Shown here: positions 38,766-45,057 of the stretch, in pieces
Position numbering within the stretch: the first letter of the stretch is position 1
Layout of the letters: each line of letters starts with the position of its first letter
Assembly: GCA_002451215.1 (NCBI GenBank)
Contig: DKBM01000006.1
Coordinates: 3,495-66,844 of the forward strand
Length of the DNA: 63,350 bases
Reading direction: 5' to 3'
Origin: Proteobacteria bacterium UBA6900
GTDB taxonomy: Bacteria > Pseudomonadota > Gammaproteobacteria > Acidiferrobacterales > Sulfurifustaceae
The notes under the pieces: generated by a model
The model's database searches: none
Told to the model about the DNA's origin: nothing
What the model saw: the letters and a program-made list of their open reading frames with translations, nothing else
Translations under genes and position numbers: made by a program

Positions 38766-40901
38766 TCATTGTAGCCCGGAATCCGAGGGGTTCGCAGAGT
38801 GCGAGACACCTTCGGGTGCCCCGGATCTGCGCAGTTGATCGACCGATTCAAGGCTGGCGCGATTCGCCGCCAGCATGGCGCGTGGCCAGGCGCGCTGGTC
38901 GATTTCAGTTCGACGCTGGATTGCTTCCCTCAACCGACCGAGACGGGTGAGGTACTCGACTTCGCCGATGTGATAAGAAAGCTCATTCGGGGCCAGCGAG
39001 GCGGCGCGCTGTATATAGGAAAGCGCGACATCATAGTTCCCGCGGCTTGCGGCAAGCCGGGCCGCCCCGGCCGCAATCACCGCACGATAGGTGCGCGAGG
39101 TCCGTGGGTTCTCAGCCGCCAGCTTGTGCCACGCAAGCACGTAATCAAGCATCGATGCACACTTGGATGCCGGATTCGACACGCACTGGCGCATGGATTC
39201 GAGCGATACCACCGCGTGCACGGACAATGTTTCGCTGGCGAGCAGATTCTGGAGGACGCGATCACGGGAATGGGGGTGCTCAAGGATCCAGCGGCGATGC
39301 TGGTAGGTGGCCGAGAGAGGATAGTCCAGGCCCGCGGACTTGACCACGACGGACTGCTCGTCGGGTGCATCGCGTCGGTGCTGATTGAGAACGGGCTCCA
39401 TTTCGTCGGCGAGGATCGCCAGCAACAAGTGGAGGTCGAGATGGAAGCCGGTCTCCTTGGGTCTTAGCAGCAGCCCACGCTCGGTGTAGCGCAAAGCGTT
39501 TACCAGATCATGTTGCTGATTGAGGCTCACGCGCGCCGCAAAATCATTGGCACGTGGAGAGTCCGGATGATATCGGACCGTGGTCAAGGCCAGCGTGACT
39601 ACGTCGGACCAGGTTCCAGATCGGATCCAGGTACCAAGTCCCAGTGCCAGACAAAGCAGTAAGGGAGCGAGCAGCTTGATTGTGGAGCGCACGCCCTGGC
39701 CGAATCGGGCGAACCCCAAGGCGCTGGCGGCCGCCAGGACGGGCCCCATGCTCGGTAAGTAGTTGCGATGTTCGTGAGCGAGCTCGAGACCGATAAAGCC
39801 CGATTCAAGACTGTGGCCGACGAGGAACCACAAGATCCCGAGACTTACCAATGGGTGACGATTCGCACGGAGGAGCGCCCAAATCGCGCCCGCGGCCAAT
39901 CCCACGACTGCCGGCAACGTGGTAAGCGGGCTGAAGAGTCCCGTACTGGGGGTGATGGCATCGTGGAACAGGCCGAACTGCGAGGGAAGCGGATAGACCA
40001 TCATCCCGAGGTAGTGCCACAAGACCCGTGCTTCAGTCAGGATCCGCTGGTAAGGCGTGAATGTACGCGCCGCATAACTATCCGTCATGAATGCGGGATT
40101 GAGGAAAACGTAGATAGCCAAGATGGCGACGGGCACTGCAAGACCCGCCACAAGGATGGAAATCAGCCGTCGCCGCAACGGCGCGGGCAGGTTCGTGCGT
40201 GAAAACACGCTGACCTCGACTGCGATTGCATAACCGGGCAGTAACACCGCAGTCTCTTTTGCCGTGATCCCGAGCAATGTGCCGCCGACCAGGCCCGCAG
40301 TCATCCACCATGTGGCGCGACCCGGATCGTCAGTCAGGCGTGATCGCCCGTAGACGAACGCCAACAGGCCCGCGAGCACGAATGTGCCGGCGAGGCTCGT
40401 CATTCGCTGTACGACGTAGAGCACGCTTGTGAGCTGAATCGGATGTAGCGCCCAGGCTGCGGCACACAGCCACGCGAAGATCGCGCGATCTCGCCTGCTC
40501 CATTCCGACGTGTTGCGCGCCACTCCCAGCAGGGCGAGAACGAGGGCATAGACGAGCCAGCTATTGACGATGTGAATCGCGACGTTGGTGACCTTGAACG
40601 GAAAGGCGCTCTCGAAATCACCAGCGAAGAAGTGATTCAGCGCAAAAGTCAGAGAGGCAAGCGGCCGTTTCAGCGGTCCAGCGTCATTGGCAAGTAGCGC
40701 GTCGGAAAGCGTGGTCGCGTTGAGGACGCTTAGCGCCACCGGAGGGTTAGCGGTGATGTTTTCGGCGTCGTCGAAGACAAATGGACCGTGAAGGCCGGGC
40801 CAGTAACTGAGCACGATGGCGATACACAGCGCCCCGGCGATTAAGCACGTTGCGAGCACTTGGCGGAGTCTCACGTCGCCGCGATTTGCCAGCAGCCTCA
40901 T
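38766..40901 (-). CDS. Multi-TM plus TPR protein, TMTC/PMT-like GT-C glycosyltransferase candidate (paralog 3 of 3)
   Basis: 711 aa. Motifs GPFVFDDAENI, HPIQLTSVLYVVQRMTSL, LELAHEHRNYLPS, YHPDS. The C-terminal ~250 aa are helical and TPR-like. Confidence 0.75.
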   Translation of the reverse strand: MRLLANRGDVRLRQVLATCLIAGALCIAIVLSYWPGLHGPFVFDDAENITANPPVALSVLNATTLSDALLANDAGPLKRPLASLTFALNHFFAGDFESAFPFKVTNVAIHIVNSWLVYALVLALLGVARNTSEWSRRDRAIFAWLCAAAWALHPIQLTSVLYVVQRMTSLAGTFVLAGLLAFVYGRSRLTDDPGRATWWMTAGLVGGTLLGITAKETAVLLPGYAIAVEVSVFSRTNLPAPLRRRLISILVAGLAVPVAILAIYVFLNPAFMTDSYAARTFTPYQRILTEARVLWHYLGMMVYPLPSQFGLFHDAITPSTGLFSPLTTLPAVVGLAAGAIWALLRANRHPLVSLGILWFLVGHSLESGFIGLELAHEHRNYLPSMGPVLAAASALGFARFGQGVRSTIKLLAPLLLCLALGLGTWIRSGTWSDVVTLALTTVRYHPDSPRANDFAARVSLNQQHDLVNALRYTERGLLLRPKETGFHLDLHLLLAILADEMEPVLNQHRRDAPDEQSVVVKSAGLDYPLSATYQHRRWILEHPHSRDRVLQNLLASETLSVHAVVSLESMRQCVSNPASKCASMLDYVLAWHKLAAENPRTSRTYRAVIAAGAARLAASRGNYDVALSYIQRAASLAPNELSYHIGEVEYLTRLGRLREAIQRRTEIDQRAWPRAMLAANRASLESVDQLRRSGAPEGVSHSANPSDSGLQ

Positions 40902-40904
40902 AAG

Positions 40905-43010: not shown

Positions 43011-45057
43011 TGGGGAGATGATTTCCGTTGGCGCGCTTGAGGCGCTCTTCAAGTTGCTGGATTTCGGTAGAACGTTTGTGCGTGGTCCTTGCATTCAGCC
43101 GATGCAATTCGTCAACGATCGGTCGGGCAAGATCGGGGCGACCCATGTCCATGAAGAGATACGCCAAGTCAAACAGCGGGTGATAGTAGTTCGTGTCAAT
43201 CTCATACGATCGGCGGTAGGCGTTGATGGCCGGGTTGATCTTTCCCTGAGCCAGAAGTGCGCGCGCATGAAAGTAGTAGAAGTAGGAAAGCAGATTCCTG
43301 TTCTTCAGCACGTCGGCTCGACCTATCAGGATGCCGGTCCACGCTTCCATTGGAACCTGCAGCGTCTTGCAACTATCGGTGATGCAGTCGCTGGCTTTGC
43401 TGAGCGCCCATTGCGTGACGGCTGTCACGGGGCCGGACGCGAGTCTGCGCGAAATTTCTTCACTGTCTTCGGCCACGAGCGACTTGCCGCGCATTGAGGC
43501 GACCGTTTGGAGACTGATCAGGTAGCCGGCCTCGGCCGGCGCGAGGGCCGAGGCCCGTCGCATGGCTTCCATGGATTCGTCTACACGATCTTGCGCAAGC
43601 AGCACGTTCGCGAACCCGGCTTGGGCACCCGCGGAATCCGGATGGTGCAAGACCTCGTATACGTAGAGTCTCTGGGTGCTAGACCACTGATTTGCGCGCG
43701 TGACGGTAATGGTGCCCAAGACGATCAACACCGACGCGAGGCCAATCCAGACGACGCGTTGCCGTGTGAAGGCAAGCAGTCTTTGCGCCGGATCGACAGC
43801 GGCCAGCAATATCCCCAGGCTGGCGAGATAGTTCCGGTGTTCGTGAGCGATCTCAAGCGGAAAGATGGTGGACTCCAGCAGGTGGCCTCCGAAGAACCAG
43901 AGGATGCCGAGACTCAGCAACGGGAGTGATGAGCGCGTTCGAATGGCGAACGCCAGCAGAACCGCGATTCCGACGATCGAGGGAAGCGTGGTCCACGGTG
44001 ACAGCAGCGAAGTCGATACCGCGATGTCGTCATGCAGGAGACCGAACGCGTCCAGCCGCGGCACGACGACCAGTCCGATGTAGAAGAAAAGCACACGCGC
44101 TTGGGTTAGCAGGCGCTCCGACATTGTGAAGGTTCGAACATCGTAGCCGGTCTGCGCATAGAGATACGCCAATACTGCAACGAGCGTGAGCATGAGGCCG
44201 GCAATCATAAGCAGCGTGCGCCGCGTTCGCGGCATTGCCGCGAGGCGACGCCAGGGGTCCTCATTGTGGAAGAGTGTCCACTCGAGGATCGCGATGAACA
44301 CGGGGAGAAGGATCGCGTTCTCCTTGCTGAACAGCGCAAGCGGCCACAGGATGGCGGCGCCAACAACAAGGAGCAGCAGAGCCGGGCGACGTCGTCCTTG
44401 ACGCGCCAGTTCGCGCGCGTGCAGATAGGCGATGATCGCCGCCAGCGTGAACAGGGCCGAGAGCTCCGTCATACGCTGAACGATATACAGCACGCTCGTC
44501 AGCTGTATGGGGTGCATAACCCAGGCGAGCGCCACGAAGCCCGCGAGCATCAGCCGAGTCCGTGCCGACGCAAGTTGCGATGAATTTGACGTAGCCAGCC
44601 CGGCAATGCGCTCGAGGATGAGCTTTGCGAGCCACAACACCAGGATGCCGTTGCATCCATGGATCGCGATATTCGTCAGCTTGAGCGGAGTGGTGCTGCT
44701 GAAGTTGCCAGCAAAGTAGTGATTGAGAGCGAAACTGACCATTGCGACCGGGCGGCGCAGCGGTCCGGCGTTCAGCGAGAACGCCGCCTGCCACAGCGAG
44801 GACGGACTTAATGCCTGGATCTTGACATAAATGTTTTCCAGCAGATTGGTGTAGTCATCGAATACGTAGGGGCCACTTGCGCCCGGGAGGAAGGCGAGCG
44901 CACCAAGAAATGACAAGATGCAGAGCGTCGGGAACAGCAGTCTTGAGGCCAAGGCGCCTGGTACAAGCGAGCCTTTCCTGTAATCGTCCCGGGAATGCCG
45001 CTCTGGATTTGCCGGTCGGGGTGGTGATTTCGCGCGGCGGGAGGGTTCGTTTGTCAT
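42994..45057 (-). CDS. Multi-TM plus TPR protein, TMTC/PMT-like GT-C candidate (paralog 1 of 3)
   Basis: 687 aa. Motifs GPYVFDDYTNL, HPIQLTSVLYIVQRMTEL, LEIAHEHRNYLAS, HHPDS. C-terminal TPR-like helices (YFYYFHARALLAQGKINPAINAYRRSYEID..). Confidence 0.75.
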   Translation of the reverse strand: MTNEPSRRAKSPPRPANPERHSRDDYRKGSLVPGALASRLLFPTLCILSFLGALAFLPGASGPYVFDDYTNLLENIYVKIQALSPSSLWQAAFSLNAGPLRRPVAMVSFALNHYFAGNFSSTTPLKLTNIAIHGCNGILVLWLAKLILERIAGLATSNSSQLASARTRLMLAGFVALAWVMHPIQLTSVLYIVQRMTELSALFTLAAIIAYLHARELARQGRRRPALLLLVVGAAILWPLALFSKENAILLPVFIAILEWTLFHNEDPWRRLAAMPRTRRTLLMIAGLMLTLVAVLAYLYAQTGYDVRTFTMSERLLTQARVLFFYIGLVVVPRLDAFGLLHDDIAVSTSLLSPWTTLPSIVGIAVLLAFAIRTRSSLPLLSLGILWFFGGHLLESTIFPLEIAHEHRNYLASLGILLAAVDPAQRLLAFTRQRVVWIGLASVLIVLGTITVTRANQWSSTQRLYVYEVLHHPDSAGAQAGFANVLLAQDRVDESMEAMRRASALAPAEAGYLISLQTVASMRGKSLVAEDSEEISRRLASGPVTAVTQWALSKASDCITDSCKTLQVPMEAWTGILIGRADVLKNRNLLSYFYYFHARALLAQGKINPAINAYRRSYEIDTNYYHPLFDLAYLFMDMGRPDLARPIVDELHRLNARTTHKRSTEIQQLEERLKRANGNHLPSAPSY

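Follow-up and report, generated by a model that had tools for sequence, protein, structure and literature searches.

To our knowledge, the only well-characterised types of enzyme that glycosylate bacterial type IV pilins are TfpO/PglL and TfpW, and TfpW has been studied only in Pseudomonas aeruginosa, with one unusual sugar. Three consecutive open reading frames (ORF1, ORF2 and ORF3) directly downstream of the major pilin gene pilA in Proteobacteria bacterium UBA6900 are described here; they lie in a stretch of 63,350 nucleotides (the window; contig DKBM01000006.1, positions 3,495 to 66,844). ORF1-3 are probably periplasm-facing, lipid-phosphate-sugar-dependent GT-C glycosyltransferases of the TfpW/TMTC type, dedicated to O-glycosylating the pilin PilA. 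The locus is best filed as a variant of TfpW-type pilin glycosylation that has TMTC-like catalytic motifs, a triplicated enzyme and a GtrB-type donor enzyme. Pilin glycosylation matters because it influences the assembly of pili, the resistance of cells to phages and the properties of their surface.

TfpW of P. aeruginosa (group IV; Pa5196, PA7) is a pilin D-arabinofuranosyltransferase of 646 amino acids (aa) with 11 predicted transmembrane (TM) helices and conserved blocks in five periplasmic loops (bioRxiv 10.1101/2020.04.19.049825). The loop that bears the DDX motif and the C-terminal tetratricopeptide repeat (TPR) domain have been located experimentally in the periplasm, the DDX motif of periplasmic loop 1 is essential, tfpW directly follows pilA in several species, and TfpW is required for pilin glycosylation (bioRxiv 10.1101/2020.04.19.049825). 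The initial annotation of the window, made from the sequence alone, was aware of no characterised bacterial TMTC-like pilin glycosyltransferase; in this it has to be corrected, because TfpW had already been described as a TM+TPR protein with 11 TM helices and 646 aa (bioRxiv 10.1101/2020.04.19.049825). No other report was found when the literature was searched for bacterial TMTC-like or GtrB-coupled pilin glycosylation systems.

Judged by the published description of TfpW and not by sequence comparison, ORF1-3 resemble it in the position of the genes immediately 3′ of pilA, in size (687-729 aa, most homologues having 640-660 aa), in the terminator after pilA that is a known feature of TfpW-type loci, and, by prediction, in a cytoplasmic N-terminus, 11 TM helices, five periplasmic loops with an aspartate pair (DD) in the first, and a periplasmic TPR domain. 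Unlike the single tfpW gene, they form a conserved tandem of three paralogues, and the locus has no tfpX. The linked donor genes here encode a GtrB/ArnC-type glycosyltransferase of family GT2, a GT4 glycosyltransferase and methyltransferases, not the DprE1/DprE2 pathway of D-arabinofuranose (D-Araf) synthesis that serves TfpW. What is new is that the triplication is conserved, that a GT2/methyltransferase donor route replaces D-Araf, and that the proteins belong to a very large family outside Pfam.

Three other kinds of system invite comparison. Eukaryotic TMTC1-4, the GT-C O-mannosyltransferases of cadherins (CAZy family GT105), likewise combine 11 TM helices with a TPR domain on the lumenal side, which corresponds to the periplasm; ORF1-3 differ from them in being unmatched by DUF1736, in having threonine for the aspartate of motif M3 and HDD for the DW of motif M5, and in their bacterial, periplasmic, pilin-associated setting, in which undecaprenyl would replace dolichyl as the carrier. 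The three-component systems (GtrA/GtrB/GtrC and ArnC/ArnEF/ArnT) also encode a GT2, a candidate flippase and GT-C enzymes together (PMC11194591), but they act on O-antigen or lipid A, whereas the acceptor here would be a protein, the pilin; moreover, the GT-C proteins here bear a TPR arm and stand three in series, and the candidate flippase is of the LPG_synthase_TM family instead of being GtrA or ArnE/F. TfpO/PilO and PglL, which are likewise polytopic, act on pilins in the periplasm as glycosylating enzymes, and tfpO too is found directly after pilA, but they belong to the unrelated Wzy_C family and transfer glycans en bloc from donors linked to undecaprenyl pyrophosphate (Und-PP). Membership of ORF1-3 in Wzy_C (O-antigen ligase-like; PglL/TfpO type) was rejected, as no Pfam or NCBIfam match was obtained.

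The three genes run head to tail on the same strand as pilA, with exactly the spacing given in the initial annotation: 123 nucleotides (nt) separate the stop codon of pilA from the ATG of ORF1, ORF2 and ORF3 are 3 nt apart, and ORF1 overlaps ORF2 by 101 nt if ORF2 begins at its first ATG or by 17 nt if it begins at the GTG at 43010. Independent gene callers also predicted all three on near-identical JGI and ENA contigs, assigning 715 or 701 aa to ORF2, the shorter call being the version with the 17-nt overlap. The encoded proteins are mutually paralogous (34-40% identity, BLASTP E 1e-83 to 1e-112). The initial annotation had described common N-terminal motifs and more diverged, TPR-like C-terminal halves, and the three sequences agree with this: the N-terminal domains are approximately 38-39% identical across roughly 490 residues, the C-terminal halves are far more diverged, and the motifs GP(F/Y)V(F/L)DD, HPIQLTSVLYxVQRMT, LE(L/I)AHEHRNYL and HPDS are all invariant. 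TPR repeats are all that Pfam detects; they score clearly in ORF1 and ORF2, whereas those of ORF3 stay below the threshold. It is plausible that the TPR halves set acceptor specificity, as had been suggested.

The conservation extends to relatives. The aspartates D67 and D68, eight residues past TM helix 1, are invariant in a set of 64 homologues and in a set of 68 sequences, and the catalytic-motif residues as a whole are invariant in the 68 sequences, a set that also covers paralogues at positions 2 and 3 in many genomes. Of the 53 residues that are invariant among the 64 homologues, approximately 49 fall on the periplasmic side or within the TPR domain. Two of the invariant residues, C558 and C563 of the TPR domain, fit a periplasmic disulfide, and hence a periplasmic C-terminus. 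Nearly all members of the third-paralogue subfamily (ORF3 and homologues P0121-P0240) have no Pfam domains, not even TPR, and the homologues are annotated as hypothetical in their source databases, yet they keep every catalytic-motif residue. Some homologues of ORF1-3 are labelled 'protein O-mannosyl-transferase' by JGI automatic annotation, and the name TfpW is carried by none of the 240 homologues listed.

The topology predicted from the family-averaged hydropathy profile and the positive-inside rule consists of a cytoplasmic N-terminus, 11 TM helices, five periplasmic loops and a periplasmic TPR domain. Periplasmic loop 1 (residues 60-122) is predicted to hold D67/D68, loop 2 (182-190) HPIQ, loop 3 (around residue 245) the K-E pair, loop 4 (308-356) Y326-x6-P333 and H342-D-D, and loop 5 (392-409) E-A-H-E-H-R-N-Y. 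The DD loop is predicted to be periplasmic because the N-terminus has a net positive charge, which agrees with its placement in the first extracytoplasmic loop by the initial annotation. A count of 11 TM helices requires that the helix at 312-331 be juxtamembrane and not span the bilayer; this was also the conclusion of Eisenhaber and co-workers for the equivalent helix in the DUF1736 loop of TMTC (PMC7801869).

AlphaFold2 models have the same general form as the family hydropathy profile, with 11-12 long helices and an all-helical TPR domain. In the full-length model, computed from the 64-sequence alignment (predicted local distance difference test score, pLDDT, 90.4), a bundle of long helices extends to approximately residue 457 and is followed by the all-helical repeat domain; a model of the membrane domain by itself has a pLDDT of 86.8. 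When the membrane-domain model was submitted to Foldseek, the only matches with probabilities of 0.93-1.0 were STT3A, PglB, yeast STT3, ALG12 and Pmt4, the best E-values being 1.8e-3 for STT3A and 5e-3 for PglB, whereas matches other than GT-C enzymes, including every transporter, had probabilities of 0.44 or less. The GT-C relatives reported for TMTC likewise include STT3, PglB and the ALG9/12-type family (PMC7801869). The full-length model retrieved only TPR proteins from Foldseek because the TPR domain dominated the search, and sequence searches of the PDB with the single protein and with the full-length profile gave only TPR matches. The description of ORF1-3 as GT-C-type candidates is thus supported by modelled fold and by motif placement, even with weak E-values.

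Five published TMTC motifs (M1, M2, the arginine of M3, M4 and M7) recur in the corresponding loops, some of them partially, in a comparison made by eye with the motifs quoted in PMC7801869 and not by alignment to TMTC sequences. The DD of M1 in loop EL1 corresponds to D67/D68. The M2 region of TMTC (YRPLCVLTSFRLN), the motif itself being SHKSYRP (PMC7801869), has a partial counterpart in R102-P103...S108-F109-x-L111-N112 (RP..SFxLN). The HP at the end of TM3 and the arginine 13 positions later in M3 (RxD; H130 and R143 of TMTC3) correspond to H182 and R195, the aspartate of M3 being replaced by threonine. The KE(T/Q)xxT of M4 in EL3 appears as K245-E246-(N/T), lacking the trailing threonine; the DW of M5 is replaced by H342-D343-D344; and the ERxxY of M7 before TM10 appears as E406-H-R408-N-Y410. 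In TMTC, ArnT and PglB, the DD pair is assigned to acceptor or metal binding, lysine and arginine to the donor phosphate, and glutamate and aspartate to metal. The label 'TMTC-like' of the initial annotation is therefore supported as to architecture and motifs; it does not extend to family membership, since Pfam models DUF1736, PMT and PMT_2 are unmatched. Membership in these three families was rejected at thresholds as permissive as E of 10 for ORF1 and 0.01 for ORF2 and ORF3, and none of the 240 homologues listed has DUF1736 among its precomputed domains.

The proposed connection with the pilin was examined by scanning one genome per species, which yielded at least 571 relatives, the best 80 loci being kept. 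The organisms sampled are Acidithiobacillales, Acidiferrobacterales (including Sulfuricaulis), Cycloclasticus, Immundisolibacter, Sedimenticola and Methylococcaceae, together with Betaproteobacteria such as Undibacterium, Sulfuricella, Gallionella and Hydrogenophaga. In 58 of the 69 loci with enough upstream sequence (84%), from several orders of Gamma- and Betaproteobacteria, the gene immediately upstream, in the same orientation, encodes a pilin, so that the neighbourhood survey proposed in the initial annotation found homologues linked to pilin genes in the relatives of this lineage. In most of the loci, pilS and pilR precede the pilin gene, and in Cycloclasticus a single copy of the glycosyltransferase gene accompanies pilSR-pilA amid housekeeping genes. 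This strong linkage suggests that the genes are functionally tied to the pilin. A tblastn search of PLSDB plasmids, which might have revealed an annotated homologue or TfpW, gave no match. One related locus (L033, 12128-13560) has a DDE transposase gene (DUF772 and DDE_Tnp_1) directly after the GT-C/TPR gene, followed by genes for a Wzx-like flippase and a methyltransferase.

Tandem copies are present in other loci as well, two in 13 loci and three in seven. The order of paralogue types in loci L001, L002, L003, L006, L008 and L013 is that of the window; because the same order recurs in distant genomes, the triplication must be old and each copy must have been retained. The paralogue 1 type is proximal to the pilin gene in every multi-copy locus except one, and it predominates in single-copy loci, a predominance that is biased by the selection of loci with ORF1 as the query.

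The conserved polyprenyl-phosphate GT2 encoded downstream of ORF3, which the initial annotation of the three genes did not mention, is the strongest mechanistic clue. An orthologue (53-68% identity) is located directly 3′ of the GT-C gene or genes in approximately 45 of the 80 loci, and in loci that lack it, methyltransferases, GT4, PMT_2-type GT-C, GT2 or Wzx-like flippase genes still occupy the 3′ side. The GT2 of the window matches Pfam Glycos_transf_2 (2e-33) and, below their curated cut-offs, the NCBIfam models AglJ (1e-40) and ArnC (2e-17); it is 30% identical to Escherichia coli ArnC (E 8e-19), and two hydrophobic TM helices can be read at its C-terminus. The presence of an adjacent, conserved GtrB/ArnC-type GT2 supports, from context, the use of a polyprenyl-phosphate-linked donor by the GT-C proteins.

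The pathway may be envisaged as follows. PilS and PilR, encoded upstream, probably drive pilA from a sigma-54-type promoter, and the hairpin after pilA would let only read-through transcripts reach the accessory genes. By homology, the conserved GT2 would charge undecaprenyl phosphate (Und-P) with a monosaccharide at the cytoplasmic face of the membrane, while a fusion of a GT2 with a methyltransferase, two other methyltransferases and the GT4 may supply or modify further sugars. The lipid-phosphate-sugar would then be flipped, possibly by the LPG_synthase_TM 'flippase-like' protein. In the periplasm, as in TMTC, ArnT and PglB, the catalytic residues would engage both donor and acceptor, and the membrane-anchored pilin may be held by the TPR arm before its assembly into a pilus; by analogy, D67/D68 would provide the base and take part in binding metal or acceptor, the donor phosphate would be bound by K245 and R408, and metal by E246 and H342/D343. 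The GT-C/TPR enzymes would thus transfer sugar to serine or threonine residues of the membrane-anchored pilin.

How labour would be divided among the three enzymes is a more speculative matter. Paralogue 1 is the probable initiating enzyme, placing the first sugar on serine or threonine, and paralogues 2 and 3, which keep all of the catalytic residues and whose fixed order predates the divergence of Sulfuricaulis from this lineage, may extend the glycan or serve other sites. It is possible, but only tentatively proposed, that the three form a periplasmic assembly line in which paralogue 1 attaches the first sugar and paralogues 2 and 3 either lengthen the chain or modify further sites. The sugars that they add would differ, would be partly methylated and would come singly from Und-P carriers made by the two GT2 enzymes of the operon. 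With such an assembly line, bacteria would have a counterpart, directed at a protein, of the lumenal ALG pathway or the mycobacterial arabinan pathway, and the stability of a cysteine-free pilin, or phage resistance, might depend on the glycan.

Several results weigh against the assignment of ORF1-3 as pilin-dedicated GT-C enzymes. Similarity to GT-C enzymes of solved structure is weak (Foldseek E 1.8e-3 to 0.5, TM-score 0.28-0.42); a PDB sequence search with the membrane-domain profile gave no match; alignment of the family profile with E. coli ArnT by hhalign showed no similarity, in what is a weak test with a single-sequence template; and no GT-C model of Pfam or NCBIfam matches the membrane domain. 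The central part of the topology depends on reading twelve hydrophobic segments as 11 TM helices. The full proline motif of TfpW in periplasmic loop 4 (YX6PFX7P) is absent and only Y326-x6-P333 is present; these residues are invariant and lie in the predicted loop 4, with arginine instead of phenylalanine at the next position and no proline at +9. There are 11 of 69 loci without an adjacent pilin gene, and the 80 loci, having been picked by similarity to ORF1, represent no more than the closest members of a very large family. Finally, homology, gene layout and residue conservation are the observations from which we infer donor, acceptor, sugar identity and division of labour.

The 11 loci without a pilin gene would be accounted for if the acceptor were something other than the major pilin (minor pilins, other envelope proteins modified by a general O-glycosylation system, or a glycan such as lipopolysaccharide) and if the position after pilA reflected only shared control by PilS and PilR. 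This explanation also suits the 53,969 cluster representatives matched by the membrane-domain profile, far more than pilin-linked genes could explain, the adjoining convergent cluster with three more GT-C-like genes and a GT2, and the many substrates of TMTC and PMT enzymes (PMC7801869). Nevertheless, it is unlikely in view of the pilin gene found immediately upstream and on the same strand in 84% of informative loci from several orders, and of the Cycloclasticus gene that stands alone with pilSR-pilA amid housekeeping genes. TfpW itself reportedly shows restricted pilin specificity, according to Kus et al. in 2008, which also counts against a different acceptor. A pilin acceptor would be retained, but the donor would differ, if the proteins acted as oligosaccharyltransferases, passing to the pilin a whole glycan already assembled on Und-PP, as PglB/STT3 do or in the way proposed for TfpW, which has been described both as an oligosaccharyltransferase and as a glycosyltransferase. 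STT3 and PglB are the top structural matches, and the operon encodes a cytoplasmic GT4 and a flippase-like protein; however, no initiating phosphoglycosyltransferase was found among the operon genes scanned, the GT2 conserved as partner is of the GtrB/ArnC/DPM1 type, has TM helices at its C-terminus and belongs to the kind of enzyme that makes Und-P-monosaccharides, and the motifs match those proposed for the binding of dolichyl phosphate mannose in TMTC (PMC7801869), all of which makes en bloc transfer improbable.

Very improbable is that ORF1-3 are plain TfpW orthologues that add alpha-1,5-D-Araf from decaprenyl-phosphate-arabinose as in P. aeruginosa group IV. Gene position, size, the predicted 11-TM topology, the DD loop and the TPR domain are the same, but only half of YX6PFX7P is present, GT2, GT4 and methyltransferase genes take the downstream positions, and genes for DprE1, DprE2 and UbiA-type phosphoribosyltransferases were not found in the window or 3′ of the gene in the related loci examined, among them loci that lack the GT2 orthologue, an absence that is not decisive because the D-Araf genes of P. 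aeruginosa are unlinked to pilA. There is hardly any likelihood that the proteins are not enzymes at all but membrane-anchored TPR scaffolds or chaperones for pilin folding or pilus assembly, comparable to the accessory proteins TfpY and FimB. TPR domains do mediate protein binding, and other genes located after pilA encode non-enzymatic assembly factors (PMC11841053), but a scaffold would not be expected to have invariant acidic, basic and histidine residues at GT-C catalytic and donor-binding positions in 64-68 sequences, genes conserved along with a lipid-sugar synthase, and high-probability fold matches to GT-C enzymes only. Periplasmic, pilin-directed GT-C transfer from a lipid-phosphate-sugar is therefore the preferred reading.

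The distribution of this arrangement suggests that the TfpW/TMTC-like design is common beside pilA in environmental Gamma- and Betaproteobacteria of the sulfur and iron cycles, and that in these bacteria it is paired with a GtrB-type donor enzyme of the ordinary kind and can be triplicated in fixed order. The family may extend much further: a profile of the membrane domain (window positions 43672-44970, minus strand) matched 53,969 cluster representatives when the threshold was E <= 1e-3 and 8,930 when it was tightened to E <= 1e-30, and the membrane domain looks like that of a very large, poorly annotated superfamily of TM+TPR GT-C proteins without Pfam or NCBIfam coverage. The locus thus flags a large family whose membrane domain is unannotated in current domain libraries, and it makes TM+TPR O-glycosyltransferases tractable in a bacterial model. 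In humans, the TMTC relatives are encoded by disease genes, and we know of no experimental structure for any of them.

The features of the locus are listed in Table 1. The sigma-54-like element upstream of pilA was recognised solely by its match to the consensus, and similar matches occur often in the window. The hairpin 3′ of pilA has a predicted folding energy of -28.6 kcal/mol (z = -6.1), and because so strong a hairpin stands between pilA and ORF1, the glycosyltransferase genes are expected to be expressed by read-through, below the level of the pilin. Terminators after the pilin gene have been described as a means of setting the levels of accessory genes (PMC11841053).

Table 1. Features of the proposed pilin glycosylation locus (window coordinates)
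Feature	Coordinates	Strand	Evidence and remarks
pilS-type sensor kinase, upstream regulator of pilA	47444..49195	-	ORF; orthologues directly 5′ of pilR-pilA in most related loci (tblastn)
pilR-type sigma-54 response regulator	46047..47447	-	ORF; 54-77% identity to same-position gene in related loci
Sigma-54-like promoter element TGGCACGGGAAGTGCA	45846..45861	-	~225 nt 5′ of pilA ATG; one mismatch to TGGCAC-N5-TTGCW
Major type IVa pilin PilA, 146 aa, cysteine-free, Ser/Thr-rich C-terminus	45181..45621	-	Pfam Pilin 6e-12, N_methyl 4e-10
Intrinsic terminator-like hairpin between pilA and ORF1	45131..45162	-	14-bp GC-rich stem followed by T-run; terminator scan and RNA fold
GT-C/TPR paralogue 1 (ORF1), 687 aa	42994..45057	-	
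GT-C/TPR paralogue 2 (ORF2), 729 aa	40905..43094	-	Alternative starts 43052 (715 aa), 43010 (701 aa)
GT-C/TPR paralogue 3 (ORF3), 711 aa	38766..40901	-	Orthologues mostly without any Pfam match
Polyprenyl-phosphate GT2, GtrB/ArnC/DPM1-like, 291 aa, candidate maker of lipid-phosphate-sugar donor	37844..38719	-	Length taken from the independent gene call
S-adenosylmethionine-dependent methyltransferase	37033..37836	-	Pfam Methyltransf_12/23/25/11; kept in L003 and L006
GT4 (GT-B) glycosyltransferase	35819..37036	-	Pfam Glyco_trans_1_4, Glycos_transf_1
LPG_synthase_TM / 'flippase-like domain' membrane protein, candidate lipid-linked-sugar flippase	34452..35519	-	Pfam PF03706 5e-46; NCBIfam TIGR00374 3e-15, above cut-off
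Methyltransferase fused to second DPM1/AglJ-like GT2	33044..34459	-	Pfam Methyltransf_25 and Glycos_transf_2; AglJ 2e-30; 96% identity in L001
FkbM-family methyltransferase, final gene of minus-strand run	32167..33018	-	Pfam Methyltransf_21 9e-24

PilA of the window ends in the conserved sequence ...VPTKYRPKN. Because it contains no cysteine, it lacks the usual C-terminal disulfide loop. Cysteine-free pilins make up 21 of the 58 that are linked to a GT-C/TPR gene, and the mean content of serine plus threonine in the linked pilins is approximately 20%. At the edge of the window, near ispH (60469-61398) and ileS (57141-59969), an ORF on the minus strand (62109-63212) encodes a PilY1 beta-propeller domain, which suggests that a minor-pilin/PilY1 operon begins there.

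Elsewhere in the window, large ORFs without a Pfam match at E <= 1e-5 are located at 16005-17582 (-), 4815-6215 (+), 6239-7219 (-) and 59-1721 (+), some of which may be non-genes. The putative pilin glycosylation operon is adjoined by a convergent cluster on the plus strand (26496-32138), which encodes a polytopic protein of 554 aa with no Pfam match and 31% identity to its neighbour, a short DPM1-type GT2 of 247 aa, and two PMT_2 (ArnT-like) GT-C proteins of 555 and 544 aa. With this cluster included, approximately 19 kb of the window encodes as many as six candidate GT-C proteins and three GT2 enzymes of the polyprenyl-phosphate type.

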